Positions 1 through 32,000 are shown, numbered from the stretch's first letter. The stretch: 32,000 nucleotides of DNA from Candidatus Saccharimonadota bacterium (GCA_963677765.1 OY782392.1:810001-842000), one strand, 5' to 3'. A program made the numbers and translations. The notes: generated by a model from the letters alone, not told the origin.

Positions 1-1432
1 TTTCAGATAAAAAGTTATGTATAAAGAAAGCTTCTACTAATGCTGTAGTTTTTACTGAAAATGGGTAGTTTGAAGTACTAAGAGTAGGAGATATTATTCT
101 TAAAGAATCTTCATTTATTTCTAGTAATTCTTCTATATTATCAAGTATTCAATCTCTTACAGTTTGTCTAAGCTTTGTTAATAACATTTCTTTATTATAT
201 GAATATGTTGTTATTTTTATTGATGCTCATAATTTGAAACTATCAGTTTCTTCTCATATATTTATTTGATCTTCTCATACTACATTAAATTCTGAATATT
301 TTGTAACTCAGTCTACAGGAAATATTTCATATTGTACATTATTTCTTTCGTTGTTATCTTTTATGTCGTTTTTTACATCTTCATATATTTGTGTTTCAAG
401 CTTTCATCTAAGTATAGTTTTAGCATTTTCTATATCTTGTTTTGTAACAACTTTTTTATAATTATCATTTCATCATTTAAATTGACTTATACTTTCAGCA
501 TATATTTTATCACTATCTTCTTTTAGTCATGGTAAAAACATTGCTATTCATGTATCTATATTTCAATTAGATCATATTATATTTCATTTGCTATCTCTTA
601 ATCTAGATTTTGCATAAGCATCTATTTCTCAAGGTATTACAGCTCATGTTGAACTTACACTACTAGATGGTATAACAACATTTCATTCTATTAAATACAC
701 TAATCAAGTTTGAGTTTCAAGTCTAGTGCTATCAATTAATTCTATTTCATCACTAAACATATTGTACAGTTTTACTTTTCATCTAGATGTTGAAACTGTA
801 TCTTCAGATACTCAAGATGTTCAGAAACTTGAATCTATAAAAATTTCTTTTGTTATTTTCTTTAGTCTTATAGTGTTTTCATCTAATACTAATTGATCAT
901 TTTCTGATTCTGTAAATATAAAATTTTTTCATTTAGTTTTTACTTCTATTTTTGGTGTTATTTCAATATGTGTTTCATTTACCGCAAAGTAAAAGACAAA
1001 TATTAGTAAAAATAATGATAAAAATAAAAAACTTATAAAATATCATATTTTTGAGTTTCCATATTTATCTCTATATCTAGATATTATATTATCATTATTT
1101 TTTTGTAAGAAAATATCTTTTATTTCTCTAAAATAGTTTTTAAATGTGTATAAAAAATATTCAAAAAAACTATAGTTATATTCTATTAAATCAGGATTAT
1201 TAGTTATAGAGTATTTTATTCATAATCTTTTTCATATTTTTTTCGCTGTTTTATCATTAGTAATAATAACTAAATCTTTTTTTCAAGATTTTGCTTTTAA
1301 TATTCTAAGTGATGTATAATTATGTAAAACTGGATGTCAAAAAGGGAATTCTAAAATTATTTCTCTTTCTTTAGTATTTTTAATTTTTATTATAATATCT
1401 ACTATAGAATCATTCTTATGAATTTTTATCAT
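1..1432 (-). CDS. hypothetical membrane-anchored protein (small N-terminal domain, one TM helix, large extracytoplasmic domain); C-terminus beyond window edge
   Basis: ATG at 1432-1430. The frame has no TAA/TAG for all ~477 codons down to position 2 once TGA is read as Gly. TM segment GYFISFLFLSLFLLIFVFYF about 130 aa in. No family recognised. Confidence 0.65.
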
Positions 1433-1559
1433 TTTTTATTTTAAAATTATTACTATTTTATTTGTTTTAGAATATCTATTTAATCTTTTTTTTCAAGTTA
1501 ATTATTACTTTACAAAATATCTATTTTGGCTACACTTTTATTATATTTATAGTTTAACT

Positions 1560-2963
1560 TTGTTTGTTTTGCAAGAGATACTGAAAATAATTGATTTAAT
1601 AGAAAGTTCTATCAAAGAAAATCCTGAAAATTCACTTACAGCATGAGAAATAATTGCTGATAATTATGATGAAAAAGTAGATCAATATAGAAATATTATA
1701 AATAATTCTCAAGAATGGCTATTAAATTATCAAAATGATTTATCAACAAGTACTTGAATATCAAACTTAAAAATTAAGTTTACTAATGCTTCTGGATATT
1801 TTATAGAAATACCAAAATCACAAACATCAAAAATTCCTGATAGTTTCATACATAAACAAACACTTGTAAATGCTTCGAGATATATAACTATAGAACTAAA
1901 AGAATTTGAACAGAAAATGCTTGAAGCACAAAATGAAAAATCTTCAAGGGAATATAATATATTTTTAGATATTAGAGAAAAAATATTAGATTCTTACTCT
2001 ATTATTAAAAAAACTAGTGATAAATCCTCAAATATAGATTTTTTAGCATGACTTGCAACAGTTGCATATAACAATAATTATGTAAAACCTGAAATAACTG
2101 ATAAATATAATTTTGAAGTAGTATGATGAAGACATCCTATAATAGAAAAAAATGTATCTGATTTCATAAGTAATGATTTATCAATGGATAAATCTAAATA
2201 TGTTCATATTATTACATGACCTAATATGTGAGGTAAATCAACTTTTTTAAGACAAAATGCTCTTATTATATTGATGTCACATATATGATCTTTTGTTCCT
2301 GCTAAAAAAGCTGTTATTCCTATCACTGATAGTATTTTCTCTAGAATATGAGCTAATGATAATTTATTTTTAGGTCAATCAACTTTTATGGTTGAAATGC
2401 AAGAAGTTGCAAATATATTGAATAATTCAACTGAAAATAGTTTTGTTATTATTGATGAAGTTGGTAGATGAACAAGTACTTATGATTGAATGAGTTTAGC
2501 TTGGTCTATACTTAAACATAATCATGATAAAATAAAAGCTAAAACATTATTTGCTACACATTATCATGAGTTAATAGATGAATCTACTAAACTTAAATGA
2601 GTAAAAAATTTTTCAGTAGCTGTTTGAGAAAATGATGAGAATTTAGTATTTCTTAGAAAAATAATTCCTTGATGAATAAAAAAGTCTTTTTGATTAGAAG
2701 TTGCTAGAATAGCAGGTTTATGAAATGATGTAATAAGTGAAGCTAAAAAGATGTTAAGATTTTTAGAATCTGAGCATTCAAAAACTTCTCAAACTCAGTT
2801 AGATATTTGACTATGAGATAATGTTAAATATATGGAAAAAATTGTTTATTGAGATAGTGAAATAGAACAATTAATTAAGAAAATGGATTTAAATAACTTA
2901 ACTCCTATAGATGCTTTTAATGAATTATATAAATTAAAAAATATGCTTGATGAAAAAAAGTAA
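1560..2963 (+). CDS. mutS: MutS mismatch-repair ATPase, C-terminal ~467 aa only (part of core, clamp, ATPase, HTH); N-terminal mismatch-binding half absent
   Basis: Translation with TGA=Gly gives the MutS signatures [14 protein letters not shown] (2214-2243, both Gly from TGA), STFMVEM, DEVGRGTSTYDG and FATHYHEL. By recollection the first residues ([14 protein letters not shown]...) correspond to a region several hundred residues into E. coli MutS. There is no in-frame ATG. Candidate TTG starts at 1560 and 1569. Stop TAA 2961-2963. Confidence 0.85.
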
Positions 2964-2973
2964 AATAATAATA

Positions 2974-4041
2974 ATGCATGACACATTTTTATATAAATGA
3001 TGATGAGAAAGGCTTATTCTTATGATGGCAAAGGCTCTAAACTCTGATTTAGCTTCAGGTTTTTTTAGTTCTTGAAGTTTTGATTTGAGAAAAGAAGGGT
3101 TTAAGTGAAAAATGATAAGTGTTTCAAGTGAAATATTTAAAAAATGATTTAGACATATAAAATTAAAATGGGCTTTTTTATTTAATACAAAATTTTTAAA
3201 TGAATACGATTGTGTTATTTTTTCATGAGATAGTATAAGTTCTGTAAGAAACTGTAGAAAAGATACAAAGAAAATATATTATTGTCATACTCCACCTAGA
3301 TATATATATGATTTACATGATTTATATCTTAGAAAAGTACCTTTTTTACTTAGGCCTTTGTTTAAAATTTTTTCATATATATTTAAAAAAATGTATGAAA
3401 ATGATGTAAAGAAAATGGATTTAATATTAACTAATTCAAAAAATACTCAAGCTAGAATTAAAAAATTTTTGTGATTAGATTCTACTATTTTATATCCACC
3501 TGTTGATTTATCTGAGTTTAAATATAAAGATCAAAAAGATTATTATTTATCATTTGCTAGATTATCTGATGCTAAAAGGGTAGATAGAATTGTGAAAGCA
3601 TTTTGAAAAATGCCAGATAAAAATCTAGTTGTTATATATTGAGAAAATGATCCACAAAAAAACTATATTTTTGATATATCTAAATGACACAAAAATATAG
3701 AATTTGTCACTTTACCTTGAAATATATGATTTACTGATTATGTTTCTAATTGTATTGCTAGTATTTATATTCCTATTGATGAGGATTTTTGAATGAGTCC
3801 TGTTGAAAGTATGGCTGCATGAAAACCTGTTATATGAGTTGATGACTGATGACTTAAGGAATCTATTATTGATTGAAAAACATGATATCTTATAGATAAA
3901 AGTGCTAAAATAGATGATATTATTTCTTGTGTAAAAACTTTGGATAAACAAAAGGCTTTATCTATGAAAGAAGCTTGTGAAGATAGAGCTAAGTATTTTA
4001 GTATAGATAACTTTGAGAAACAATTAAAAACATATATATAA
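2974..4041 (+). CDS. glycosyltransferase, GT4 (group 1) family
   Basis: 355 aa with TGA=Gly. C-terminal motif [37 protein letters not shown] is typical of GT4/GT-B enzymes. Three consecutive TGA codons at 2998-3006 (KGGGE). Stop TAA 4039-4041. Confidence 0.85.
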
Positions 4042-4044
4042 AAA

Positions 4045-4074
4045 AAGATACACTTATTTAAGTATATCTTTTTT
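4045..4074. terminator. bidirectional intrinsic terminator between convergent genes
   Basis: 10-bp stem with 1 mismatch (aagatacact / agtatatctt), 6-nt loop, A-run on the left and T-run on the right. Confidence 0.6.
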
Positions 4075-4080
4075 AAATTA

Positions 4081-4431
4081 TTAACTCATTGCTTTAATAG
4101 CTTCTTCTTCAGTATCAACAGTAGGAACAATAGTTGTTATACCAACTAGTTCTAAAATATCTTTTACTCCTTCAGAACAGTTAGATATATGCATTTGACC
4201 TTCATTATCTTCGATATTTGAAAATACATCTGCTATATAACCAATTGATTTTGAGTTTAAATATTTTAATCCTGACATATTGAATACGATTTTTTTGTTT
4301 TCAAAACCACCAATTTCATCATATATTGTTTTAAATGTTTTATCAGCATTTGTTTCATCTAATTCTCCAGAGAATTCAAAAACTAATATACCATTTTCTT
4401 CTTTTTTATTTACTTCTATTAATGTTTCCAT
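4081..4431 (-). CDS. STAS-domain protein (anti-sigma-factor antagonist, SpoIIAA-like)
   Basis: 116-aa ORF intact even in the standard code. Pattern ...FEFSGELD...FNMSGLKYLNSKSIGYI...LELVGI... matches STAS/anti-anti-sigma architecture. Confidence 0.8.
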   Translation of the reverse strand: METLIEVNKKEENGILVFEFSGELDETNADKTFKTIYDEIGGFENKKIVFNMSGLKYLNSKSIGYIADVFSNIEDNEGQMHISNCSEGVKDILELVGITTIVPTVDTEEEAIKAMS

Positions 4432-4520
4432 AAAATATTAAAAGTTATTATTAAATTTGATATATTTATTATATAACAAATATTTTTTTAAAGCAAATTT
4501 TAACATTATTTTTTCTTGAT

Positions 4521-4922
4521 ATGATTAAAAAATATACCATAGATAATATAAATACACTTGATATACCTATTCCTAAGCCTTCAATAATTTTTCTTAGAGG
4601 GGATTTATGAGCAGGTAAAACAACTATAAGTAAACATATTTTAAACAATTTGTTAAAAGTATGTGAAGAAGTTACATCTCCAACTTATACTTATTATAAC
4701 AGATATTGAGATAATTATCACTTTGATTTATATAGATTATCTAATTATGATGAATTTTTTGCTATTTGATGAGAAGATATTTTAGATAATAATGAATGAG
4801 TAATTCTTATAGAATGGCCGGATTTAATAATGGATTATTATCAAGCTGATTTAATTATTGATATAAAAAAAACTGATAATGATAATGAAAGAATAATAGA
4901 AATAATAAAAAAAGAAGCATAA
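4521..4922 (+). CDS. tsaE: tRNA t6A37 biosynthesis ATPase TsaE (YjeE family)
   Basis: 133 aa. P-loop GDLGAGKTT (4599-4625, middle Gly encoded by TGA), SPTYTYYN, HFDLYRL, LIEWPD. Confidence 0.85.
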
Positions 4923-4936
4923 TTGCTTCTTTTTTT
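4912..4936. terminator. bidirectional intrinsic terminator overlapping two convergent stop codons
   Basis: 8-bp perfect stem aagaagca/tgcttctt, loop taat, followed by a T-run. It overlaps the tsaE stop (4920-4922) and the sugar-transferase stop (4935-4937). Confidence 0.7.
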
Positions 4937-6407
4937 ATTTTCTAGAAAAAATAACATTAAAAGTTTTTAGTATTATTTTTAGATCTAGTAACATTGTCCA
5001 ATTTTCTATATAAAATATATCAAGTTCTGCTTCTTTTTTAAAATCATTTTTTTCTCTTCAATTAACTTGAGCCATTCAAGTAATTCATGGTTTTATTGTA
5101 AGAAGTCTTTTTTGTTCTATGTCATATTTTTCTACTTCTCTTGGTTGATGTGGTCTAGGTCAAACCAAACTCATATTTCATATTATTAAATTAAAAAATT
5201 GAGGTAATTCATCTATAGAGTATTTTTCTATAAATGTTCATATTTTGGTTTTTCTTGGGTCATTCTTTATTTTGTATAGTGGTCAATTTCTTGTTGAGTT
5301 TTTTTCTATTAATTTTTTTTCAAACTCTAAGGCTTTATCTTTTTTTGGATCTATATTATATGCATCTTTGATACAATATTTCCATTTCATATACCTAAAC
5401 TTAAAAAGATTGAATTCTTTTCAGTTTTGTCATATTCTTTTATTTTTATATATTATTGGTCACTTAGGATCTTCTATTTTTATTAGTATAGAAACAATTA
5501 TAAAAATAGGTGAAAATACTAATACTCATATTATTCAAGATAGAAAATCAAATATTCTTTTAAAAACTTTTCACCAACTATCTAGAGATGTATTATTTAT
5601 TTCAATAACTGGTATTTTATTTATAAGTGAAAGACTTGTATTTGTTTTTGTTACATCAAAAGAATTTGTTATATATCTATATCTAACTCAAAATATTCTA
5701 GTTAATTCCCATAAGTTATGTAATTCATTTTTTGAGAAATCACTATCTATATATAGTACTTCATCACATTTTTTAGATTCAAATAATTTTTTAAGTTTAT
5801 TTATATCTCATTTATAACTCATTTTTATTCATTCTATCTTTTCTATATTTGAATATCATATTATTTGATATATTTTAGCATCTTTTATATCTTTTATTAT
5901 ATTTTCTATTTTATTTTTTGGTTTATTATTTATAAGAAGTATTTTTCTTTTTGATAAAAATCATTTCTTTAATAAAAAATATTCAAACTTATTTAAAAAT
6001 ATCCTTTCTAATATTACAGCTAATGTACCAATAATAAATGTAAATAGTATTATAAGTCTAGGTATTTCAATTTCATAAATTATTCACTTTCAAAGATAAA
6101 CAAAAAATGAATAAAAAATTAACCAGTAAAAACTATATCTAATTATCTGTAAAAACTCACTTATTTTAGAAGATGTTATTTTTATAAAGTATAGTCAATG
6201 AATAGCAAATATAAATATATATAGTAAGGTACCGTATAATGCAAAAAAGAACAAACTAGAATCATCTATAGTTTGTAGTGGTAAATTTACTCATGGAACG
6301 AAGTCGTTTATTTGTCTTATTTCCCTGGATATGTAAAAAAGACAAAATATAATTATAAAATCAAGTGGAAGCTTTGCTATAGCAAATACAATATCTTGTT
6401 TTTTCAT
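4935..6407 (-). CDS. polyprenyl-phosphate sugar phosphotransferase (bacterial sugar transferase, WbaP/WcaJ-like, with N-terminal TM region)
   Basis: 490 aa with TGA=Gly. C-terminal catalytic domain motifs: DELPQFFNLIIGNMSLVGPRPHQPRE (Gly of VGPRP is TGA), KPGITGMAQVNGR, YIENWTMLLDLKIILKT. Hydrophobic N-terminal helices. ATG at 6407-6405, stop TAA 4937-4935. Confidence 0.85.
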
Positions 6408-7539: not shown

Positions 7540-7542
7540 TAA

Positions 7543-8340
7543 ATGAAATTATTAATTTTTTGAGACATATATTGAAGAATTTGAAGAGCCTGATTAAAAA
7601 AAGAGTTAGCATGATTAAAATCAAAATATAATCCTGATTTTACAATAGCTAATGTTGATAATATAACTTCTTGAAGATGAGCTGTTGAAAAACATATATT
7701 AGAGATGAATAAAATATGAGTTGATATTATGACATGATGAGATCATATTGTAGATAATTATTCAAAAATAAAAGATTATTTGTCTTTAGATAACACCAAC
7801 TTACTTAGATTTGCTAACTTTTATGATAAAGATTTTGCATGAATATGACATAAAATTTTTGAAAAAAATTGAAAAAAAATTCTTGTAGTTCATTTGCAAT
7901 GAGAGGTTTTTATGCATAACAAAGTTTTAAATCCATTTATTACTATGGATGAAATATTATCTAGTTATGACAAATCCGAATATGATTGAGTTATTGTAGA
8001 TTTTCATAAAGAAGCAACAGCAGAATGATATTGATTAGTTCATTATTTAGATTGAAGAGTTAGTTTTGTTTATTGAACTCATACACATGTTCAAACAAAT
8101 GATGAATTTATTTTAAATTGATGAACATGATATATAAGTGATGTTTGAATGAATTGACCATTTTATTCAATTATATGAGCAGAATTTTCTAGTGTTAAAC
8201 CTAGATTTTTATCATGAATATCAAAATGAAAAATAGAACAGTCACTTGATAATACTTATTTAGTTTCTTGAGTATTTATTGAGTTAGATGAAAAATGAAA
8301 ATGTCTAAAAATAGAGAAAATTAGAATAAAGTCAAAATAG
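7543..8340 (+). CDS. ymdB: YmdB-like metallophosphoesterase (2',3'-cyclic-nucleotide phosphodiesterase family)
   Basis: 265 aa. MKLLIFGDIYGRIGR, NVDNITSGRG, VDFHKEATAEG, VYGTHTHVQTNDE and YISDVGMNGP resemble the B. subtilis YmdB motifs as I recall them. Stop TAG 8338-8340. Confidence 0.8.
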
Positions 8341-8417: not shown

Positions 8418-8945
8418 ATGAAAAAAGAAGAAATTTTACAAAAAATAGAGCATTTATTTTATGAAAAAAGTTATAAAGAAGTTTCTCTTCAAGATGTAGC
8501 TAATATTTTTGAAATTAAAAAATCTAGTTTATATTATTATTTTGATTCTAAAGAAGATATGTTTTTTGATGTTTTAGAATATTCATTTAATAAATATTTA
8601 AACTTTATAAAAGATCTTATATCTAGATGGAATAATAGTAATTTTCAGGAATTACTTATAGAGTTTATTAATTATTGAGACAGCGAAAAGAATGTATTTT
8701 TTAGAATAAATCAATCTAGTTACACATGAAGTGATAAATCTTTGGATTTAATTCAGTATAAACAAAAAATTATTTTTGATGAAATTCATAAAGCTTTTTA
8801 TGAAAAAGCATGATTCTCAAAAGAAAGAACTTATTTATTTTTAGTTTTAATAAATCAAACTTTTAATAATAATTGAGTTTACTGAAAATGTGAATTGAAT
8901 AATGAAAATATACCATCAGAAATTGAAAAAATATTTTTTAACTAA
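8418..8945 (+). CDS. TetR/AcrR-family transcriptional regulator
   Basis: 175 aa. N-terminal HTH ...YKEVSLQDVANIFEIKKSSLYYYFDSKEDMF... is the TetR_N signature. It continues past the standard-code TGA at 8679. Confidence 0.85.
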
Positions 8946-8953: not shown

Positions 8954-10873
8954 ATGAAAAAAATCTTTATTATTATTTCTTTATTATTATTTCTTTCTTC
9001 TTGTTGAGAGATTGATGATAAAGTAGTGAAATATTATGAAACATCTATTGTATCAACATGATCTTTAGATAAAAATACTACTTATGTTTGATATACTGAC
9101 TCTTTTGATAGTATTTGATTATCTTTTAAATCTCCATGAAAAATAACAGCAATATATAAATGAATTGGTGATAGAGTTGTAGAATGAGAACTTTTAGCAG
9201 AACTTGATTGATTAGAAGCTAAAACTTGATATAGTTCTAGTTTAGATATTATAGCAAGCCTTAATAATTTAAAACAATCTACTTCTTTGTCTTATGATAA
9301 GCAAATAGAAGCTACAAGAGCTCAAATAAATCAATTAAATAAAGCTCTAGAAATGTCTGATATTTCTATATCATGAGCACAAAGTTGATTATCAGATGCT
9401 GATACAATAAAATCAAATCAAATTGAAACTATAGAAAATCAAATTTCACAAGCTGAACTTTGACTAGAAACTTCAAAAATAAATTATGATAATACTAAGT
9501 CTTTATTAGAAAAAAAAGAAACTGATATTTATACAAACTCAAAAAACTCTATTTCAAGTGCTAATACTTTATCTTCTAATGTTTTTGATTTCTTAGATAC
9601 TTTATTTGGTGTTAGTTCAGTCAATAAAAATAAAAATGATTCTTTTGAAATATATTTATGAGCTAGAAATTCTTCTCAAAAAATATCAACTGAGAATTTA
9701 ATAGATAATTGAATGAAAGATTTTTCTAATCTAAAAGAAAAATACTCAAATTTAGATAGTAATGAAAAAATTAAAGAAGCTTTAAATGAATATTATATAT
9801 TTTTTAATAATGATTTAAAAAATATTTTAGCTTCAGCATATACTACATTGGAAAACTCTATAGAATCATCTAATTTTAGTTCTTCACAAATAAATCAATA
9901 CAAATCAACTATTTCAGAATTTCAATCTAAAAATGAGCAAGTTATATTGTTTGTGAGTTGAAATTTTATGTTGGGTTTAAAATGAAGTTTAGATAATATT
10001 GATACTATACAAAGAGAAAAAAAATCTAGTTTAGATTTATTGCAAAAACAAATAGAAAATAGTGAAAAACAAATTGATATTTTAAAAAAATCTTTAGAAA
10101 CTTATAAGTCTCAATCAAGTTGAAATGTTAATCAAGCAAGTACTTGATTAGAACAAGCAAAAAAACAAAAAGAAATTGTTGAAAATCAAATAATAGAAGC
10201 AAATGCATGATTAGAGGCACTAATAGAAAAAAAGAATGCTTCTCTTAGTGAGATTGATACTCAAATTTCGCAAGCAAGAGCCTCACAAAATAATGCTTGA
10301 GCAATGATTCAAAATACAAAAATTTATTCAAATATATCAGGTATAATTACAAAAAAGATGTTTGATGTATGAGAAGTTGTATGAGCTTGAATTCCTGTTT
10401 TATACGTTAGTAATAGTAAAGATATAAAAATAGAATTAAATATATCTCAAGATTTAGCTGATAATCTAAAAGTTTGAGATATTGCAAAAGTTAAGATTGA
10501 ATGATTAAATGATTTATTTAATTTTGAAGTTTTTAAAATATATCCTTCAAAAGATGAATTAACTAAAAAAGTAACTATTGAATTATTTTATAATAATATT
10601 GATAATAGAATAAAACTTTGAAGTTATTCAAAAATATATTTTGATTTAAACAAATCAAGTACTTGAATTATAATTCCTAATACAGCAATTATATCTAAAT
10701 ATATGATTCCTTGAGTTTATGTTCTAAGTGATAATTGATTAGTTAGTTTTAAAAAAATAGAGATTATATCTCAAAATGATGATATTACTCAAGTTACTTG
10801 ATTAAATGTTTGAGATATGCTTATAACATGATGAAAAGATAATATTTATGACGGTGAAATTTTATCAAATTAA
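8954..10873 (+). CDS. efflux pump periplasmic adaptor (MFP/HlyD family) lipoprotein with very long coiled-coil hairpin
   Basis: 639 aa. Lipobox LLFLSSCG. N-terminal lipoyl-like strand (GKITAIYKGIGDRVVEGELLAELD). Long Q/E/K-rich coiled coil. C-terminal beta-barrel segments (SGIITKKMFDVGEVVGAG, IIPNTAII). Stop TAA 10871-10873. Confidence 0.8.
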
Positions 10874-14100: not shown

Positions 14101-14437
14101 GATATGAATAATAGCATTATGATGAATTGTTGTTTGAAATGCTATAATACTTATAGACTATTTAAATGTATTAAAAAGAAATTGACTAACTATGTGAGAT
14201 GCTTTATTAAAAGCTTGATATGTTAGATTTGCTCCTATTATATTAACTAGTTTAACAACAGTTTTTTGAGCAGCAACTATAATTTGAGATCCAGTTTGGT
14301 CATGATTGGCTTGGACTGTTATATGGTGATTGCTTATAAGTAGTATTCTTACTCTGGTAGTAATTCCTATATTTTATTATGATAGTCAAAAAGATGAATG
14401 GGAAAAATGTGCATGAATAGATGAAAAAAAATGTTAA
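11144..14437 (+). CDS. RND-superfamily efflux transporter permease (AcrB/AcrD/AcrF family)
   Basis: 1097 aa continuous with TGA=Gly. Typical 12-TM, two-large-loop layout. Conserved TM4-region LFALILVLGMIVDNSTVVVENISRH and second-half equivalent IGIIALGGIVVGNAIILIDY. Stop TAA 14435-14437. Confidence 0.9.
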
Positions 14438-14440: not shown

Positions 14441-14468
14441 AATAACCTACTTAGTAGGTTATTTTTTT
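14441..14468. terminator. bidirectional intrinsic terminator
   Basis: 10-bp perfect stem aataacctac/gtaggttatt, loop tta, T-run. Overlaps the stop of the convergent gene. Confidence 0.7.
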
Positions 14469-18303: not shown

Positions 18304-19239
18304 ATGAAAAAAATAAAATTAATATCTTTGTTTTATATTTTATATTCTTATTTGAATATACAAATTTCTCATGCTGCTGTATGAGCTAATGAATTAGATC
18401 AATGAAAAGAAAATGTAAGTATTATTGCTAGTTTTTTTACAACACAAATGCTTCTTAATGTAATATTTGCTATAGCTGTTGTATTTCTTACTTTTGTATC
18501 ATCAAAAATGTTATCAGCTAAATTGGCTAGATATTTAGAAGAAACTGCAAATTGAGAAAATAGGGAAGAATTAGTAGGTGTTTTATCAAGAACTACACAT
18601 ATAACAGTACTTTTTATATGATTTGCAATAACTTTGACTATATTGTGAGTTGATATGTGAATTTTTTTAGGTTGATTATGATTTTGATTATGATTTACTT
18701 TGAAAATATTTTTATCAAACTTTATAGCTTGAATTATAATGGTAACTCAATGAACTTATCATAATTGAGATCTTATTCAATTAGAAGATGGTAAAATGTG
18801 AAATATAAAAAGAATACATTCTCTTTTTACAGCTGTTCAACAATTTGATGGTGTTATTTACTATGTACCTAATGTTAAGTTTTTAGAAGAAAATGTTTCT
18901 AACTATAATAGTAATGATAAGAGAAGGGTAGAAATACATGTTTGAGTTGATTATGATACTGATTTAGTTAAAGCTAAAAAGATCATGATACAAGTTATAA
19001 AACAATTTCCAAATGTTTTAGTTAGTCCTGAACCAATGGTTACAGTAGATAAATTAGCTGATAGTTGAGTTAATATGATTCTTAGATTTTGGATTCCAGC
19101 AGATGGAGGAGATTATCTAAAAACAAAATCAAATGTTACTGAAACTATACACTTAGCATTTAGACAATCTGGAATTACTATTCCTTTCCCACAAGTTACA
19201 CTTAGTAATAGATCTGATTTTACAATTAAAAATAATTAA
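18304..19239 (+). CDS. mechanosensitive ion channel, MscS family
   Basis: 311 aa. Pore-helix region GIFLGGLGFGLGFTLKIFLSNFIAGIIM followed by a beta domain (GDLIQLEDGKMGNIKRIHSLFT...VPN), typical of MscS/YnaI-like channels. Confidence 0.85.
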
Positions 19240-20738: not shown

Positions 20739-21776
20739 TTATATTTTAATATAGTAAGTATCGGGATCTTCAAAAATATTTGATATAAAAGTTTGGTAAT
20801 ATCTTATTTTTGATAATAGCATATTTTTATGTTCTTGATCTAGTTCACTTAATAAATCATCTATAATCAAAATAGGTTTTTTTCATGTCTTTTTTTCTAT
20901 AAATATACCTTCTAATAACTTTAGATATATTATAACACTTTTTGCTTCTCATCTAGAAGCAAAATTTATTAGATTTATACCATCTATACTTACTTCAAAG
21001 TCATCGATATGTGGTCATATAGGTGTTTTTCATAGTATGATATCTCTTTTTATATTTTTATCTATATATTCTTTTATAGATGATTCTATATTGTTTTCAT
21101 CTACTTTTGTTTTGTATATAAACTCTATATTTTGAGCTTTTTCTCAAAAATATTCTTTTGTATTTACTATAGATTCTTTTAAAAAATTTATTAGTTTAAA
21201 CCTATATTTATATATTTGAGAAGCTAACTCTATGAAGTTTTTATCAAAGAAAACTAAATCATCTAAACTAGCTTTTTGCTCGTTTATTGCTTTTAGCACT
21301 GAGTTTCTAGATTTTACTATTTTTTTGTATTTTTTTAGTAATAAATCATACTCTTCATAACTACTTTTTAGTGTTTCATCTATAAAATCTCTCCTAAGAC
21401 TAGGGGATAAATACATCATATTCATCATTATAGGAGAAAAAATAACACATGAATAAGATTCTAGAAGAAATTTTTTCCTTGTAGTTTTTTTGTTGTTTAT
21501 TAGATAATTTTTCTTTTTATCTTTTTTTGAATAATAAAATCAAAATTTATCTCATTTTTTATTAAAAACTTCAATAAAAAAATAATCCTCTCACAATTTT
21601 ACTAAATCATCTAAATGTAATTTTGTGATAGAATTATTTCATATTAGACTTATAGCTTCTAGGATATTTGTTTTTCATTTTCAGTTTTCTCAAATAATAA
21701 AGTTTTCATCTCTGAAATCATTTATTTCTTTTGATCAAAAATTTCTAAAATTTACTATTTTTAAGTCTTTTATCAT
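20739..21776 (-). CDS. recF: DNA replication/repair protein RecF
   Basis: 345 aa. Walker A GENGKGKTNILEAI (21666-21692, three Gly from TGA). Signature region ASRGEAKS. Walker B PILIIDDLLSELD. In frame with track fragment 21144-21428. Confidence 0.85.
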
Positions 21777-21784
21777 ATTTTTAA

Positions 21785-22072
21785 TTATTTCATTATATTT
21801 GAAATAGCTATTTGATTTGCTACTACTTTTTGTTTTGAACAAGCTAGTAGATCTTTTACTTCTGTTTCTTTTTGTGTTTCTACATCATCTCTAAGAATAT
21901 TTTCTTTTTCTACTACAGAAACAGTAGGAGCTACTCAACTAGTATCAACTTCATTTAATAAGTCTATATATTTTAGTATTTCATTTATATCGTTAGCTAA
22001 TTTTTCATCTTCTAATTTTATTTTACTTAGATTTTTTGATAATTTTTCAATTTGTTCTTGTGTTAAACTCAT
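21785..22072 (-). CDS. gatC: Asp/Glu-tRNA amidotransferase subunit C
   Basis: 95 aa. MSLTQEQIEKLSKNLSKIKLEDEK...VDTSGVAPTVSVVEKENILRDD matches the GatC pattern (...v.p......lReD). Confidence 0.75.
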
Positions 22073-23353: not shown

Positions 23354-23382
23354 ATATTATATATGGTGCCATGGCAGAGTGG
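23354..23382 (+). repeat. second copy of the 29-bp repeat (genuine tRNA-Cys 5' end and upstream 11 nt)
   Basis: Identical to 23154-23182. Confidence 0.9.
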
Positions 23383-23438
23383 TCATGCAGAGGTCTGCAA
23401 CACCTTGTACAGCGGTTCAATTCCGCTTGGCACCTCCA
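23365..23438 (+). tRNA. tRNA-Cys (anticodon GCA), CCA encoded
   Basis: Manual cloverleaf: acceptor GGTGCCA/TGGCACC; D-arm GCAG..TGC; anticodon stem GAGGT/ACCTT with loop CTGCAAC; T-arm AGCGG-TTCAATT-CCGCT; discriminator T then CCA. Confidence 0.9.
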
Positions 23439-23689: not shown

Positions 23690-24571
23690 ATGCTTGAATT
23701 CCTTGAACAATTTTTTGATTTTCTAAAGGATGCTAAACTTTTACGGGGTTTAATTATTTGATTAATAACTTTTATATTAAATTATTATTTATTTAGAAAA
23801 GATACAGATATATGAATTATTAGTACATATTCTGGTAAATCCATTCCTACCAAAAATCATATTAATAATGCTATCCATAGTCTTATTTTTAGAAATAGAA
23901 AAGATTATATTATTATGGATCAAGATTTAAATTCTAAATGATATACTAACGATACTTTAGATACTTTTATTACTGAAAATACATCACAAATAAAAAAACT
24001 TAGTAACTCAAATAATGTATTATCATTATTTTTGTTTGCTCATATGCCTTTAATTGTTTATTTAGGTTTTAAAATATGAAAATCAAAGAAAGTTGAGTTA
24101 TATCATAAATTAAGAACAGAAGATAAAAATGAGTGGAAATGGAAAAATATTATATTTAAAAATATATATAAAAATAAGTGGGAATATATTATTAATAAAA
24201 ATTTAGATGATAGTAAAAAAGACGTAATATTAGATATTGATATTTCTTTTCCTATTCACTGAAAAGACTTAATAGATTATACGAATAAATCTTATTATAG
24301 AATAGAGTTGATATGAAAAGATAATGAATTAATTAGAAATTCTTTTTTAAGATATAAATATCAATTAACAGAATTTTATAATATTGTTGAAAAAGCATTT
24401 TATGAAATAGAAGAAAAATTATGAAGTAATTGTAATATACATTTATTCTTAACAACTCCTAATCCTTTCTCATTTATTATATGACAACAAATACATATTA
24501 ATTGACCAAAAGTGTTAGTTTATGATAAAAATAATGAGTGAAATTATGTTGTGATGAAAATTATAAATTAA
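23690..24571 (+). CDS. CBASS-type effector candidate: N-terminal single TM helix fused to SAVED-like (double CARF-like) sensor domain
   Basis: 293 aa, verified codon by codon (11 in-frame TGA, stop TAA 24569-24571). TM helix LLRGLIIGLITFILNYYLF. Two repeated nucleotide-sensor-like motifs, VLSLFLFAHMPLIVYLGFKIG and NIHLFLTTPNPFSFIIGQQIH, as in the two halves of SAVED. No recognisable enzymatic domain. Confidence 0.65.
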
Positions 24572-24583: not shown

Positions 24584-25921
24584 ATGAAATTAATAAGTTA
24601 TTTTGATGATTTTTTGAAATCAGAAGTAAATTTAGATCAAACAAGATTAGATACCGCAAATAGTAGAATAGAAACTATTACAGGGTTTATTGAAAATGAA
24701 AATTTATTTAGTAGGATATTTAAAAAGTCTACTCCTCAAGGTTCTTTTAAACATCAAACAATTATAAAACCTGTAAATGTTGATGATGAGTTTGATGTAG
24801 ATTTATTAATAGAATTAAATGAAATTGTAGGTTGGGAACCTAAGCATTATATTAATAATTTATATAGTATATTTAATGATAGTGATAGATATAATGATAT
24901 TGTAGAAAAAAATACCAGGTGTATAACATTGAATTATAAATCTGATTTTCATATGGATTTAGTACCTTGTATAAAAAAAATAGATAATTATTATATATTT
25001 AATGAAGAAGAAAATAGTACTGAAATAACTGATTGATATTGATATGCTGATTGGTTTAAAGAAAAAAATGATTTAACAAATTGAAACTTAAAGAAAGTTG
25101 TAAGATTATTAAAATATTTAAGAGATTATCATAATTCATTTGATATTAAATCAATACTACTTACTACTTTAATAGCAAGAGAAGTAAATGAAAATGAAGA
25201 TTATCAGGATGTACCATCAACATTAAAAATATTAATTAATAGTCTATCAGGAAAATTATACAATATTATATATTTAGATGACTTAGATTTATCTAACCCT
25301 GTATTACCTGATGAACAATTTGATAGACATATAAATCAAGATATATATGAGAATTTTAGAAATGAAATATTAAAACTTAATATTTTAATAGATGAAGCTT
25401 ATAATGAAACAGATAAAAATGTAAGCATAGAGCTTTGGAAAAATATATTTTGAGAGAGTTTTTGAAAATCAAATAGTAAAAATAGTATTGTAAAGATAAT
25501 AGCAAATGAATGGATGTGAGAGAAACCAGTTTGGGAGAAAAAACTTATTGGTAGAGTAGTAGTAAATTGTAATTACTATACTAGAATAAGTAAATATAAT
25601 ACACAAAAAATAACTGTAAAAAATTTACATACTTTTGTTATATGACAAAAAGTAAAGTTTTCAGCTTCAGTTTACAATATATCTTGACCTTATGAGGTTA
25701 AATGGCAAGTAGTAAATACTTGAGATGAGGTTAGGTGAGATAAGGAAAAAATGAGATGAGATTTTTTTAATTGAAGAGATGAAAATCTTAATGATGTAAA
25801 AAACTCACTTACAAATTGGGAGAAAATCTGATATAAATGAATTCATTGGATAAAGTGTTATATAATAAAAAATAATTTTATTGTATGAGAAAGTGAAAGA
25901 TTTTATGTAATTGTAGATTAA
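24584..25921 (+). CDS. SMODS-family nucleotidyltransferase (CD-NTase-like cyclic oligonucleotide synthase) with ~150-aa beta-rich C-terminal extension (AGS-C-like sensor domain)
   Basis: 445 aa. Pol-beta NTase catalytic pattern GSFKHQTIIKP...DEFDVDLLIEL plus third acidic residue in FHMDLVPC. Downstream ...LKKVVRLLKYLRD is typical of CD-NTases. The C-terminal 300-445 is rich in short beta-like segments (VVVNCNYY, VKFSASVYN, YEVKWQVVN, HWIKCYIIK). Starts 12 nt after the SAVED gene stop. Confidence 0.75.
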
Positions 25922-25992: not shown

Positions 25993-26919
25993 ATGGAATT
26001 AGAAATAAATAGGATTTCTCTATATTTAGCTTGAAAATTACCTCCATATTATAAACCATTTGATAAAATGGAATTTATGGAAGAATTAATGTGAATATTT
26101 TCTGATGAATTTTCAGAAAGTACTTTTAATTTTATACAAAATCAATCAAAAACAGACGAGCAGTTTTATTCTATGTCTTTAAATAAAGCTAAAAGAATTA
26201 ATAAAGCTAAATTAGTTTTATTTTTAGATAAAATTAATGTTAAAGATGATGCAAGAAGTATTATTCAAGATAGAAAAGAATCTGAAATAAATTGAAAAGA
26301 AGAATTACAATTAAAAATCAAAGAATTAACAAAACCAATAATAATCACAGAATGAAAAACAGATGTAAAAATCTTAAATATTGCTTGGAATAAACTATAC
26401 CCAGATTTAGAATGTCCTTTTAATATAATAGAGAATTGAATAGAAAAATGAAATGAATTACCAAAAAATGGGAGTGCAGAGTGACTTAAAAATCAATTAA
26501 ACTATAGTACTATATATTGAAAAGATAGGTTAATAATATGACTTTTTGATAATGATAAAGAATGAAATGAGCAATTTAAATGATTATATAAAGATTTATT
26601 TGAGAAATACGATTTATATAAAGATATAAGAAAACATAAAGATTATAATATTTATTGATTGTTATTGCAGGTACCTGAGTTTAGAAAAAATTATGTAAGT
26701 TCAGATGATATTAAGCAAAGGTATTTTCAAATTGAACATTATTTTTCTGATGAAATTCTTAATGAAAACAATATGAAAAAGAAGGAAATAATTAAGTGAA
26801 CTTGAATTTTTGAAATATGATGAAGTAAAGACTCTTTTTCAAAATCAGTAGAAAAATTAGAATTAAAAGAATTTGAGAATTTTAAAATATTATTTGAAAG
26901 AATATTAAAGTATATATAA
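25993..26919 (+). CDS. Toprim-domain protein, DUF4435/AriB-like C-terminal nuclease domain with unrecognised ~115-aa N-terminal domain
   Basis: 308 aa. Toprim Glu motif PIIITEGKTDVKIL (Gly is TGA). DxD motif IIGLFDNDKEG. Downstream QIEHYF resembles the ENYL motif of DUF4435 proteins. No partner ABC/AAA ATPase gene nearby. Confidence 0.6.
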
Positions 26920-26928
26920 AAAATAATA

Positions 26929-26958
26929 AAACTCTAGACTAAAAAATCTAGAGTTTTT
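26929..26958 (+). terminator. intrinsic terminator
   Basis: 9-bp stem aactctaga/tctagagtt, 8-nt loop, T-run. Confidence 0.7.
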
Positions 26959-26979
26959 CTTTTAAATGACCTTAAATTT

Positions 26980-27008
26980 AAGGGGGTAAAAAGTCTTAAT
27001 GCCCCCTT
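26980..27008. other. isolated G/C-run hairpin AAGGGGG-N15-CCCCCTT in a ~300-bp non-coding stretch
   Basis: 7-bp stem containing five consecutive G:C pairs, very unusual for this AT-rich DNA. Only three T follow, so it is a poor terminator. Confidence 0.5.
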
Positions 27009-27214
27009 TGATATATCCATTTTGAAAATTTAGAAATTTTACGAATTTTAAATAAGGGCTTTCCGCTAAGGTTAGCTTTTTTTAGTGTCTATAAAAAGTT
27101 CAATAATTAGTTTTTTAATGCCAACCGTCTTTTGTTCTTTATTTAGTGAGTTTTGGCTTTCATATAGGGAAGAATAGAGTTCAATAATTCTGTTTATTAT
27201 AAAAAAATATATTT

Positions 27215-27243
27215 TTGACAATATTTACTTTATATGTTTTAAT
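27215..27243 (+). promoter_or_regulatory. candidate sigma70-type promoter for the Mrr-HRDC gene
   Basis: Consensus -35 TTGACA, 17-nt spacer ending in TG, then TTTAAT. 35 nt upstream of the ATG at 27278. Confidence 0.45.
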
Positions 27244-27277
27244 ATATTAAATATATTAAAACTTTATTTAATACATA

Positions 27278-28177
27278 ATGAAAATAAATAAACTAGACTT
27301 AGCTAAAGTTATAAGTGACTTTATGTTTTTAAATGAGGAAAATCCTGAAGAAAAAGCTAAAGTTGTTTTTAAAGTCAAACATAAGCTAACTGCACATTGA
27401 TTTGAAAAATATATGCAATACTATTTTGAAAAAATAAAAGGCTATAAAGTAACTCTTAATTGAAGAACTTATGAGTTTGATTGAGGTATTGATTTAAAGT
27501 GAATAAAACAAGAAAATTGAGTTAATAAATACTTAGTGGTGCAATGTAAGAAATACTCAATTAAAGATATAACAGAGGAGAATATAAGAAGTTTTCAATG
27601 AGGTACAATACATAAATATGCTCAATATAAAGAAGATACAGAAACTTATTATATTACTACTTCAAAATTTACTGATAGAGCTGAAAAGTTTGCTAATGAA
27701 GTATGAATAAAAGCAATAGATTTTTTTCACATATATAAATTACAGAAAGTTTATTCTGTAGAAAAATTTGAAGAAGATTTGAAAAAAGAGGAATGAATAA
27801 GAGAATATAATAAATCTTTCGAAGAAGACCAAATGATTTTAGATCTTGATAATCAAGTATATGAAACAATTTGAGTTACAAATAATGAGGTATTTCAATT
27901 GTTAAAACAAGTAAGAAGAGATTATTCTCATCATAAACAATTAAGGTTATGAGATATTGCTAGAAATGATACTTTAGAATTATTATCTAGAAAAAGACCT
28001 CATAATTTACAAGCATTAAAAGAAACAATATCTCATTTATCTACAAGAGAGCAAAATAAATTAATAAAACACTGAACAATTTTTGTAGAAAGATTAAAAT
28101 ATATTGATAATGAAGAATGACATCAAGAACTAATAGAAAAATCATTTTTTAGTAAATTGGTAGAATTTATAAAATAA
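27278..28177 (+). CDS. Mrr-type restriction endonuclease (PD-(D/E)xK, Mrr_cat) fused to HRDC-like C-terminal domain
   Basis: 299 aa. FDGGIDLKG...YLVVQCKKY...ETYYITTSKFTDRAEKFA is the Mrr catalytic-domain pattern. The C-terminal VFQLLKQVRRDYSHHKQLRLGDIARNDTLELLSRKRPHNLQALKETI resembles HRDC helices. Confidence 0.7.
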
Positions 28178-28178
28178 A

Positions 28179-28208: not shown

Positions 28209-28218
28209 ATTATTATTT

Positions 28219-28581
28219 TTATAAAAACTCTTTAATAAAAATAAATATTCAAAATATTATAAATAATGTTAATATAAAATAATAAATATAATCATAAGAT
28301 TTAGATTCAATTATTTCCTTATTTATTTTATTTGTATCTTTAATTTCAATATTATTTAATTCATTTATGTTACTAATATTATTTAGATTTATATTATAGC
28401 TTTCTTTGGGTAATAAAAATTTCCAAAATCTATATGTTATATAAATGATACTAACAGTAAAAAATATTATAAAAGCATAAATTATTAAGCTAAGACTTAT
28501 GGATGAAATAATTACATCTGTAAATTCATTTCAGTTATTTATTGGAGTATTAAATAAATTTTCAGAAATCGTTCTTATCAT
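28219..28581 (-). CDS. small 2-TM membrane protein
   Basis: 120 aa. ATG 28581-28579, stop TAA 28221-28219. Two hydrophobic helices separated by an N/K/I-rich linker. Extremely AT-rich, so coding status is less certain. Confidence 0.45.
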
Positions 28582-28607
28582 AATGTTTAAATTAATTATA
28601 AAAATTT

Positions 28608-29273
28608 TTATTTATTTTTAACATATTTTTCATTTATAATATTTCAATACTTTATTTTTTTTATATGATTTATATTTCATATTTTTTTATTATGAGATAT
28701 TATGTAACTAAAAAATATTATTGTTTTAGCTATATCTTGTCATGAATAAAAATGAAAATCGTTATTAATTATTATTTCTAAAACTTTTTTATATATGAAT
28801 CTATATGATCATCAATGCCTTAAAATATCAAGTATTATGTCATCATTGTTTTCAAAAAATAATATATAATAAATATTATTTTTTATTTTTTCATCAAAAA
28901 ACTTTTTATTATAATAATTACTTTCATTATTTTTATTACTATAAATGAAATTTTCTATATCTTTTAATGTATCTAATGCACTCTGTATTTTAATTGAATA
29001 ATAATTTTTCTTATACTTCCTATATATAAAATTAAGTTCAAAAAATATTATAATAGTAATATTAATAATAAATAATTCATATAAGTTTAAATTTATAAAC
29101 TGTTCTTTGAATATGAATAAAGATAAACTAAAAACTAAAAAATATATTAAAAATCTTTTTTTAAATTTTTTATTATTTTTTAAAATATTAATGTCTTTAT
29201 CTACTAAAGATACATCAATCATAATTCCTGATATAAAGAATAATAATATTAAACCTACCAAAAAGTCTCACAT
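28608..29273 (-). CDS. membrane protein (3 N-terminal TM helices plus ~130-aa soluble domain)
   Basis: Extends track ORF 28812-29261 through two TGA codons (..RHGGSYRF..) to TAA at 28610-28608. An ATG at 29273-29271 lies 4 codons upstream of the TTG used in the track. Confidence 0.5.
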
Positions 29274-29395
29274 ATTGTATTTAATAAAAAATAAACATAT
29301 TTTAATATTACTATATAATATAATAAATTCAATTTTAAGTTTGTAATTTGAAATTTATTTATAATAATATATATATTATTTTTTACTATTTTTTT

Positions 29396-29791
29396 ATGAA
29401 ACTTATAATAAATTTTATTAGATATATTTTATTTATAATATTTTCATTTTTAGCTTCTGAGTTAATATTTTATTTATTTACTTTACTTTTAGGATTTATA
29501 TCATCACTTTCAATTTTTTGGTTAATAATATTTTTTATTTTCCTTTTTTGAGCTGTTAGTTGAGTTTTATATTTATTTTCTTGATTATTAATATATTTAA
29601 TATGACTTATTTCACCTTCAAAAATTATATGATCTTACATATTTTCATTTATTATATTAATATATTTTTCTTTATATATGTATGATATAATTTTTATTAA
29701 TGAATGAATAATATTTAAAATATTTATTTCTTTATTATTTAGTTATTTTACTTTAATTCTTATTTTCTTTTCTTTTAATAATGAAAATTAA
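29396..29791 (+). CDS. small polytopic membrane protein
   Basis: 131 aa from the ATG at 29396. Continues past the TGA at 29552. Almost entirely F/I/L/Y. Overlaps the next gene by 11 nt. Confidence 0.45.
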
Positions 29792-30134
29792 TATAAATAA
29801 TAATAAAAAAATTATTATATTAAATTTAATAGCTATTATTTTACTAATAGGAACTTTATTTGATTTTCCATATTTTTATTATCAAATATTAAGATGGTAT
29901 ATATTTATAGCTTTTATATTCATAATCTATAATTTGTATTTAATAGATAAAATTAAATTTAACATATTAATATATATTTATTGATTTATTGCAATAATTT
30001 TCAATCCTATATCACCATTTTATTTTTGATGAGATATATGGTTTATTATAGATATAATTACAGTTTTTGTTATAGTTTTTAATATTTTTTACTACAATTA
30101 TATATCATCTAAAATATCTCTTAATATTCAATAA
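29781..30134 (+). CDS. small 4-TM membrane protein
   Basis: 117 aa. ...YYQILRWYIFIAFIF...IAIIFNPISPFYFGGDIWFIIDI... Continues through TGA codons to TAA 30132-30134. Confidence 0.55.
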
Positions 30135-30737: not shown

Positions 30738-30807
30738 AATGATTTAATTAATTAATATTTTTTTTATAATACTTTTTAAAATATAAAAATCAATTTATAA
30801 TTCTACC

Positions 30808-30846: not shown

Positions 30847-30860
30847 TTGGCACCTCCATA
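30847..30860 (+). repeat. attR-like direct repeat (orphan copy of tRNA-Cys 3' end)
   Basis: TTGGCACCTCCATA is identical to 23427-23440. No T-arm or other tRNA sequence precedes it. Confidence 0.85.
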
Positions 30861-30870
30861 TCAAAAACAA

Positions 30871-30899
30871 AAAAACCGACTATTTTTAGTCGGTTTTTT
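30871..30899 (+). terminator. intrinsic terminator, probably the ancestral tRNA-Cys terminator
   Basis: Stem ccgacta/tagtcgg extended by A:T pairs, loop tttt, T-run. 10 nt after the attR-like repeat. Confidence 0.7.
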
Positions 30900-30958
30900 A
30901 CATTTATATAAAAATATTGTAAAATATATATGAAATTTATAAATTTTAAAAATTACAT

Positions 30959-31330
30959 ATGTGAATAGAATCTCAAGAAGCTAATTCTCTTACAGAAATA
31001 ACGAATAATATAAAGGAAAATCTAATATCTAGATGAACAATAGATATTGAAAAAATTGATTATTATATTAATTTTATATTAAAAGGTAAATTTAGTGAAT
31101 GAAAATTACAAAATTTATACGATAAAATAAGTAATAGTGATGATAAAAAAGTAAATGAAGTTATAGATTTTCTATATTTTATGGGTTATATGGAAAAAGA
31201 ACTAAATGACATAAAATCATCTCTTGATAAAGCTCCAGAAAAAATAAAAAAAGCTATTAGTGAACAAGCAGAAATGGAAAATAAAATTGAATTAGAAGAA
31301 TTTGAAAAATTTATGAATGATAATTTATAA
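30959..31330 (+). CDS. hypothetical alpha-helical protein
   Basis: 123 aa. Starts ATG-TGA (MGIES...). Charged and helical. No family recognised. Confidence 0.5.
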
Positions 31331-31371
31331 AAAATTATTATTATTTAAATCTTATATATTAAAAATATAAA

Positions 31372-31758
31372 ATGGCAATTGAATCAGTAAATCATACAGT
31401 TGAAGCTGTTAATAACCTTAATAATGATATAAAGGGCTTAGAGAATAAATTAAATGATATAAAAGAGAAAACATGATTGTTCTCAGAATATTCTCCATCT
31501 GAAGGTATGGATAAAGTAATAGATACTATAAGTGATTTTATTAAAGAAAAATATGGAACTATAAATATTATATCAAATGCTTTGTCTAATTGAATTGAAA
31601 ATCAGGAGGTAAATCAGATTTTAACTAGTTTGGTATCTAAGATGGATATTTTAATATCTACTCTAAATGACAATTCAACATGGGTTAGTGGTTGATCAAA
31701 AGATAAATTTAATATGTTACTTGCAGAACTTAATACTGTTAAATCAAAAATTAGCTAA
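31372..31758 (+). CDS. hypothetical alpha-helical protein
   Basis: 128 aa (MAIESVNHTVEAVNNL...). N-terminus loosely similar to the preceding gene product. No family recognised. Confidence 0.5.
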
Positions 31759-31850
31759 AAAAATATTATTTTATTTGTAATTACTTATTGTTATATCTAA
31801 ATTAATATTATATAATATAATTCAATTCAATATAAACTAAAAAAACTATT

Positions 31851-32000
31851 ATGAAAAAATCTACATTAATTACTTCTATTATTTTTGTATTATTTATATT
31901 TACTTATGTAATTGTTGATGCAAGAGCATGATGATGAGGTTCTTCTAGCTCAGGTGATTGAGAGTCAGTTTTTTGAGCAGTTATAGCATGACTTATCTAT
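31851..32000 (+). CDS. small secreted/membrane Gly-Ser-rich protein, 3' end beyond window
   Basis: MKKSTLITSIIFVLFIFTYVIVDARAGGGGSSSSGDGE... Three consecutive in-frame TGA codons at 31929-31937. Confidence 0.5.

Follow-up and report, generated by a model that had tools for sequence, protein, structure and literature searches.

How is the codon TGA read in a stretch of DNA where annotation with the standard code yields only fragments? The stretch, hereafter the window, comprises 32,000 nucleotides from an assembly labelled Candidatus Saccharimonadota bacterium (GCA_963677765.1 OY782392.1:810001-842000), and an earlier note on it had proposed that TGA encodes glycine throughout and that standard-code annotation of it therefore fails. 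In the window, UGA is almost certainly a glycine sense codon, UGG alone encodes tryptophan, and UAA and UAG alone terminate translation, a code that corresponds to translation table 25 as used by Gracilibacteria/BD1-5. That this lineage reads UGA as glycine has been on record since 2013, and the finding is a real, correctly interpreted instance of that already known reassignment. Consequently, the window must be annotated with table 25 and not with table 11 or 4. Beyond the known code, its value lies in an extreme codon takeover, a selective retention of GGN glycine codons and a measurable contamination of protein databases.

The window has a guanine-plus-cytosine (GC) content of ~22% (14-25% per 2-kb step), and table 11 breaks it into short open reading frames (ORFs), only five of which reach at least 120 amino acids (aa). 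The longest, of 190 aa (5245-5817, plus strand), is indeed an antisense artefact, as had been claimed, lying wholly within and antisense to a minus-strand sugar-transferase gene at 4935-6407 (Pfam Bac_transf, E=4e-49). When TAA and TAG alone terminate, the number of ORFs that reach 100 aa is 36, the top three having the 1097, 683 and 639 aa that recoding had been said to reveal, and the summed length of ORFs of at least 100 aa rises from 8% of the window under table 11 to 97%. Treating TAG as a sense codon brings no improvement on table 11, and reading TAA as sense gives short ORFs only, the longest being 354 aa. After curation, 30 genes occupy 89.7% of the window and end in 27 TAA and two TAG codons but never in TGA, in agreement with the note. 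In frame 0 of these genes there are 445 TGA codons, whereas the 27 TAA and two TAG all stand at gene ends, although both triplets are common in the remaining two frames. In-frame TGA is present in 29 of the 30 genes, the exception being the gene of a STAS-domain protein discussed below. Among the 9,565 in-frame codons, TGA (445; 4.65%) outnumbers both GGN (85; 0.89%) and TGG (47; 0.49%).

One line of evidence for which amino acid TGA encodes comes from five families that could be aligned, with TGA masked as X, to solved structures from standard-code organisms. The genes concerned are as follows:

1560-2963, plus strand: short MutS consisting of domains III (part), IV and V only, with 20 TGA (Pfam MutS_V, E=7e-72; also NCBIfam)
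4521-4922, plus strand: TsaE, with the P-loop GDL-X-AGKTT and an EWP motif whose tryptophan is TGG (Pfam TsaE, E=3e-26; PDB 6n9a and 1htw)
7543-8340, plus strand: YmdB-family metallophosphoesterase with 29 TGA, no GGN and no TGG (Pfam YmdB, E=1.5e-53)
11144-14437, plus strand: RND transporter of 1097 aa with 62 TGA (Pfam; PDB MexK 9xwg)
20739-21842, minus strand: RecF, with the Walker A motif X-EN-X-K-X-KTN (PDB RecF 5z68, E=2e-38)

The motifs singled out by the note are all present where it places them. Positions 2214-2243 of MutS read T-X-P-N-M-X-G-K-S-T, where X marks two TGA codons; positions 4599-4631 of TsaE read G-D-L-X-A-G-K-T-T, with TGA at 4608-4610; and positions 21666-21692 of RecF (minus strand) read X-E-N-X-K-X-K-T-N, with three TGA. 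V-X-PRP in the sugar transferase, EDF-X-MSPVE in a glycosyltransferase and TE-X-KTD in the gene at 25993-26919 were likewise found, as were the tryptophan-containing EWP and WKW motifs.

The targets of the structural alignments were E. coli MutS (7ai6), three structures for YmdB (4b2o, 1t71 and 1t70), MexK (9xwg) for the RND transporter, 5z68 for RecF, and 6n9a and 1htw for TsaE. With one alignment per family, glycine stands opposite 50 of 109 distinct TGA sites and tryptophan opposite none, so that TGA columns favour glycine, as the note predicted. All eight alignments together place glycine opposite 85 of 169 TGA positions, against a glycine background of 7.6%, and again tryptophan opposite none. 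The short MutS aligns to residues 399-852 of E. coli MutS (E=6e-94) with 12 of its 20 TGA opposite glycine, and YmdB shows 15-18 TGA opposite glycine in its three alignments. In all five families, the homologues continue through the TGA positions rather than ending there. Control codons behave as follows: GGN stands opposite glycine in 13 of 15 cases and TGG opposite tryptophan in 3 of 9, these three representing two distinct codons (one in MutS, and one TsaE tryptophan counted against two targets).

Codon columns in MutS point the same way. We compared the window segment with its counterparts in 15 relatives from the Gracilibacteria and in 22 bacteria that use the standard code. At ten of the 20 window TGA columns, glycine is found in 22/22 standard-code bacteria, and two further columns have glycine in 21/22 and 19/22. 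The 15 relatives show only TGA or GGN at those ten invariant columns, and across all 20 columns they carry TGA 126 times, GGN 91 times and TGG never. Conversely, the single tryptophan-conserved MutS column has TGG both in the window and in each of the 15 relatives, which upholds the claim that tryptophan is still encoded by TGG. A comparison between strains adds direct substitutions: Logan contig L001, which is 91.8% identical to the window, differs from it at 15 codons that involve TGA, six being exchanged with GGA, six with GGT, two with serine codons and one with an alanine codon, and none with TGG or TAA. Columns, composition and strain exchanges thus agree with the proposed glycine meaning, which may be regarded as established as far as sequence analysis allows.

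Two other meanings of TGA have to be weighed against this one. Under table 4, as used in Mycoplasmatales and several insect endosymbionts, TGA would encode tryptophan; the window is AT-rich like the genomes of such organisms, and ORF boundaries are identical under tables 4 and 25. Public protein data even appear to favour tryptophan, since the TsaE of the source genome is found by exact-sequence look-up in the public collection only as a version with tryptophan at every TGA, and 86 of the 120 best YmdB homologues contain at least 3% tryptophan. These tryptophan-bearing entries are, however, a product of gene-calling heuristics (bioRxiv 10.64898/2026.05.24.727570). Table 4 is rejected because of the column counts, the protein composition and the strain substitutions, and we consider it very improbable. 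Tryptophan is absent opposite aligned TGA, tryptophan-conserved columns carry TGG, and relatives never use TGG at the TGA columns of the window's MutS. The window's proteins contain 5.5% glycine and 0.5% tryptophan under table 25 but 0.9% glycine and 5.1% tryptophan under table 4, which would also leave YmdB with 10.9% tryptophan and no glycine; their composition is therefore normal only if TGA encodes glycine. Finally, a TGA-TGG exchange between strains is never seen, although one transition would suffice. Even less credible is the view that TGA remains a stop, so that the window would be decayed, pseudogenised or mostly non-coding DNA, or that it is occasionally read through or decoded as selenocysteine. 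The lack of any table-11 ORF above 190 aa fits such decay, but homology in MutS, RecF, TsaE, YmdB and the RND transporter runs unbroken across 5-62 TGA per gene, with E values down to 1e-94. Moreover, TAA and TAG are strictly excluded in frame while TGA occurs at a normal glycine frequency, and the reading frames of the window genes are the same in strains and relatives. Selenocysteine recoding also makes UGA a sense codon, but in few codons and genes and with a need for selenocysteine insertion sequence (SECIS) elements, whereas in the window UGA is found in every gene but one; 445 selenocysteine sites are implausible, and the aligned residue is glycine rather than cysteine or selenocysteine.

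A third alternative accepts glycine at TGA and concerns the arginine box: if CGG, and perhaps CGA, encoded tryptophan, plain table 25 would mistranslate a few codons. Reassignment of CGA and CGG to tryptophan has been predicted in Absconditabacteria, and of CGG in some Gracilibacteria (Shulgina & Eddy, PMC8629427). The CGN box of the window is almost vacant (CGT 1, CGG 1, CGA 0, CGC 0 among its codons), which is a precondition for codon capture; the remaining arginine codons are all AGA or AGG. The lone CGG is codon 19 of the gene at 23690-24571 and lies in a non-conserved N-terminal segment, so that it speaks neither for nor against the reassignment, whose effect on the window would be at most one residue. 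We consider this variant unlikely, though clearly less so than the other two. The codon CTC likewise has zero occurrences in the window.

Returning to glycine as the meaning of TGA, several points weigh against it or temper its support. The P value for 85 of 169 positions (3e-49) overstates their independence because YmdB and TsaE sites recur against several targets; counted once each, the sites opposite glycine are 50 of 109. Roughly half of the TGA sites in the alignments stand opposite residues other than glycine (alanine, lysine, leucine, serine and others); this is expected for variable columns, yet it means that not every site is individually proven. The window itself carries neither a tRNA(UCA) nor a release-factor gene, so that the decoding machinery of this genome is not seen in it. 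The lineage assignment given below also derives from best-hit labels and not from a phylogeny.

Searches with ARAGORN and Rfam found no tRNA(UCA) in the window, nor was there one in 18 related loci, and BLAST of the tRNA-Gly(UCA) of the clade against the window gave chance matches of 9-10 nt only. That clade tRNA was obtained by scanning metagenome contigs for tRNAs that combine glycine identity elements with a UCA anticodon; criteria for tRNA-Gly(UCA) have been published together with Codetta results (PMC8629427). It is 76 nt long and near-invariant on at least 35 recoded contigs, with anticodon UCA, G1:C72, C2:G71, G3:C70 and U73, and reads GCGGGGGTAACATAAAAGAGTGAGTGTACTAAGGCTTCAACCCTTGGGTGTGCGAGTTCAAACCTCGTCCCCCGCT. 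Contigs that carry it have a GC content of 18-30%, and their long-ORF coverage is 0-0.4 if TGA is a stop but mostly 0.6-0.95 if it is a sense codon. In several of them, some stretches are 68-80% identical in nucleotide sequence to loci of the nearest relatives of the window. Two relatives (L008 and L010) carry a tRNA-Trp(CCA). On many of the recoded contigs, a conserved basic protein of 111 aa (MANSHGLKS...GMPR) is encoded within a few hundred bases of tRNA-Gly(UCA). It has no Pfam match, is TGA-poor (0-2 TGA, 7-8 GGN) and is found at L128 1389-1721, L145 1895-2227, L171 1492-1824 and at least six other metagenome loci.

By analogy with the lineage, the source genome would possess a dedicated tRNA-Gly for UGA, bearing a UCA anticodon and the identity elements of glycine tRNAs, and release factor 2 (RF2) would have been lost, leaving no competitor for UGA. 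The RF2 gene prfB is missing in all available BD1-5 genomes (Sieber et al., PMC6851277), and glycine at UGA in BD1-5 was shown by proteomics in 2014, with 97 peptides unique to the glycine database versus three unique to the tryptophan database (Hanke et al., PMC4032931).

The note had placed the source among the stop-codon-reassigned lineages within the Candidate Phyla Radiation (CPR), in Gracilibacteria or SR1, and this placement holds and can be narrowed. Among GTDB species representatives, the best MutS matches (58-65% identity) are Candidatus Gracilibacteria, or metagenome-assembled genomes (MAGs) labelled only Patescibacteria or bacterium, and one of the nearest relatives is Ca. Altimarinus; these best matches use in-frame TGA themselves. 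The named YmdB homologues are all Gracilibacteria or Altimarinota, and the labels Candidatus Gracilibacteria and Altimarinota share NCBI taxid 363464. Since no match among the nearest MutS and YmdB relatives is labelled Absconditabacteria, the lineage can be narrowed, on these labels, to Gracilibacteria/BD1-5, which NCBI lists as Candidatus Altimarinota. Essentially no in-frame TGA occurs in two MAGs that bear the name Gracilibacteria (L019 and L043), in line with literature accounts of UGA remaining a stop in some genomes so named (PMC8629427; bioRxiv 10.64898/2026.05.24.727570).

The window shares with Gracilibacteria using table 25 (BD1-5; GTDB class JAEDAM01, order BD1-5) glycine at TGA, UGG for tryptophan, UAA/UAG stops, low GC, a small genome (a contig of about 1.05 Mb) and the labels of its nearest relatives, and tRNA-Gly(UCA) is present in the clade. 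The difference is one of degree only: TGA makes up 84% of glycine codons in the window and 23-87% in the sampled relatives, and a published closed BD1-5 genome has 28.9% GC (PMC6851277) compared with ~22% here. Absconditabacteria (SR1), a sister clade in the same GTDB class, also read UGA as glycine under table 25, but provide no best match, and the CGA and CGG codons predicted to encode tryptophan in that group are essentially unused in the window. Table-4 lineages (Mycoplasmatales, Hodgkinia, Zinderia, Nasuia, Stammera and others) resemble it in having UGA as sense, AT-rich reduced genomes and an expected loss of RF2, and differ in that UGA in the window aligns to glycine and never to tryptophan, for which conserved columns use UGG only.

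The extent of the takeover is unusual. TGA accounts for 84% of glycine codons in the window, a TGA/GGN ratio of ~5.2. Across 16 recoded loci, the TGA share rises from 0.23 at 33% GC to 0.87 at 22% GC (Spearman rho -0.80, P=2e-4), while TGA and GGN together make up ~5.3-6.7% of codons in all 16. The window stands at the extreme end of this range but is not unique, as L013 and L014 have shares of 0.86 and 0.87. Its GGA/GGT ratio is 0.33, compared with ratios of A-ending to T-ending codons of 0.63-0.89 in the other four-fold boxes, which fits a draining of GGA by a single step to TGA, a synonymous change under table 25. The comparison with relatives suggests that AT mutation pressure moved glycine codons from GGN through GGA to TGA, which would account for the share that TGA now holds. 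With TGA at ~5:1 over GGN and a near-empty CGN box, the window adds an extreme data point for codon-capture dynamics. In the gTranslate preprint, the log(UGA/GGN) feature is clamped at 0 as a means of removing extreme outliers.

Table 4 annotation of the window puts tryptophan at ~4.7% of residues, that is, at 84% of all glycines, and public collections already hold proteins of this kind. The glycine version of the source genome's TsaE is absent from the public collection by exact-sequence look-up. In the tryptophan-rich YmdB homologues, tryptophan stands where glycine belongs; the nearest, P0005 (88% identity), has 29 tryptophans at the 29 TGA columns and contains 10.9% tryptophan and 0% glycine, whereas NCBI-named YmdB entries contain glycine and 0% tryptophan. 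These entries match a documented limitation of coding-density heuristics, which choose between tables 11 and 4 only (bioRxiv 10.64898/2026.05.24.727570), and gene calling cannot tell table 4 from table 25. Across the whole clade, such substituted entries impair searches for homologues, the profiles of protein families, the prediction of structures and the databases used in proteomics. A large part of the clade's public proteins, P0002 and P0005 among them, is translated in this way.

Within this TGA-dominated stretch, one gene retains GGN throughout:

4081-4431, minus strand: STAS-domain protein with 9 GGN and no TGA (Pfam STAS, E=2e-17)

Against the 84% TGA share of the window, nine GGN and no TGA has a probability of 7e-8, and because it has no TGA, the STAS protein has the same sequence under any code; an exact look-up places it on a contig of 1,048,296 bp (NCBI, Logan and ENA) and on three Logan contigs. 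These Logan contigs are 92-99.7% identical to the window, and in four strains spanning this range of DNA identity all nine glycine codons are GGN, with GGT/GGA swaps at two sites and never TGA. Strains that match at only 91-93% in the flanks have a 100% identical STAS protein, and among Gracilibacteria relatives its identity is 70-80%, a conservation above that of MutS. A TGA-free family can be ruled out, as the homologues in L014 and L006 have nine TGA and one GGN at the same columns; the avoidance is lineage-specific, and the same glycine columns display a further TGA-GGN interchange. A recent foreign insertion is unsupported, since the gene lies near MutS in 9/15 relatives and occurs in three sister-strain contigs. 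L001 is syntenic with the window around it over ~10 kb, and the GC content of the STAS gene is 25.6% versus 22% for the window. STAS and TsaE are divergent genes, and the 89-bp intergenic region that separates them (4432-4520) is 100% identical to L001, compared with 91-93% for the genes on either side. This conservation probably marks a divergent promoter or regulatory region.

To look for further TGA-poor genes, we took 462 ORFs from 48 recoded loci, measured the depletion of each against its own locus and identified the depleted genes with Pfam. In relatives, the most strongly depleted genes include DEAD-box helicases (6 TGA/60 GGN and 25/35), EF-Ts (0 TGA/15 GGN) and ribosomal protein S1 (6 TGA/25 GGN), with coordinates in L005 (10308-13481), L011 (2585-4375) and L012 (2078-4177). 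Ribosomal protein S2 (2 TGA/9 GGN) gives a weak signal that is lost on correction for 462 tests, and other strongly depleted ORFs lack known function (L184, 0/35; L119, 0/19). Within this set of 462 ORFs, which is not genome-wide, the pattern suggests, short of proof, that mutation drives the use of UGA and that highly expressed genes still avoid it. Somewhat short of an even chance, in our view, is the broader proposal that in the lowest-GC Gracilibacteria UGA now serves as the default glycine codon (84-87%) and the GGN box has been drained by the single synonymous step from GGA to UGA, while a set of highly conserved or highly expressed genes selectively keeps GGN, namely STAS in this species and EF-Ts, S1, DEAD-box helicases and, more weakly, S2 in relatives. 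If true, decoding of UGA by tRNA-Gly(UCA) would still cost speed or accuracy, for example through U34 wobble between UGA and UGG, and the use of a captured stop codon would reflect a mutation-selection balance that could be quantified across the clade.

The remaining features of the window are listed below:

2947-4041, plus strand: GT4 glycosyltransferase with 20 TGA, 2 GGN and the EDF-X-MSPVE motif (Pfam Glycos_transf_1, E=7e-13)
4935-6407, minus strand: bacterial sugar transferase with 22 TGA and the V-X-PRP motif (Pfam match given above)
8418-8945, plus strand: TetR regulator (Pfam)
8954-10873, plus strand: HlyD-like adaptor with 33 TGA (Pfam)
16173-18224, plus strand: M23 peptidase of 683 aa with 38 TGA (Pfam Peptidase_M23, E=5e-22)
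18304-19239, plus strand: MscS-type mechanosensitive channel with 16 TGA and 7 GGN (Pfam MS_channel_2nd and MS_channel_3rd)
23365-23438, plus strand: tRNA-Cys(GCA), the sole tRNA of the window (ARAGORN; Rfam)
23690-24571, plus strand: SAVED effector with a hydrophobic N-terminal segment (first gene of the CBASS described below)
24584-25921, plus strand: oligonucleotide cyclase with SMODS and AGS_C domains (padloc, E=3e-124)
25993-26919, plus strand: 308-aa protein with no significant family match (Toprim_2 at E=0.072, with 13.9 bits where the cut-off is 22.1)
within 25993-28177, plus strand: Mrr_cat and HRDC nuclease-like protein downstream of CBASS (padloc PDC-S02, E=2.5e-10)

The window is a housekeeping stretch and an ordinary chromosomal segment. 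Two of its genes lack a family assignment: the minus-strand gene at 2-1432 (477 aa, 26 TGA, 1 GGN), which runs off the window edge, is without a match in Pfam and NCBIfam, and that at 14467-15573 (minus strand, 368 aa), whose C-terminal part is charged, repetitive and K/E-rich, is without a match in Pfam, NCBIfam and padloc. The short MutS corresponds to positions 391-792 of the NCBIfam MutS model and thus lacks the mismatch-binding and connector domains. Each of the 15 TGA-using relatives has this short form (458-589 aa), as does L019, and the proteins of L026 and L043 are 870-885 aa long; a separate N-terminal half of MutS was not found in the window or in ~270 kb of the relatives' flanks.

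Directly downstream of tRNA-Cys(GCA), the SAVED effector and the cyclase form a two-gene CBASS (cyclic oligonucleotide-based anti-phage signalling system) in a code-25 CPR bacterium. For the gene that follows, the note's TE-X-KTD motif stands but its Toprim label does not gain support, as the match is sub-threshold and padloc, NCBIfam and PDB searches gave no meaningful match; the reading of TGA as glycine is unaffected by this. Together, this 308-aa protein and the Mrr-like nuclease are possibly the remainder of a defence island. Further downstream, the region at 28219-30134 has only 12-15% GC and contains four small, very hydrophobic ORFs of 120, 221, 147 and 117 aa, and the ORF at 29781-30134 has a 69%-identical DNA match that adjoins tRNA-Gly(UCA) on metagenome contig L131.

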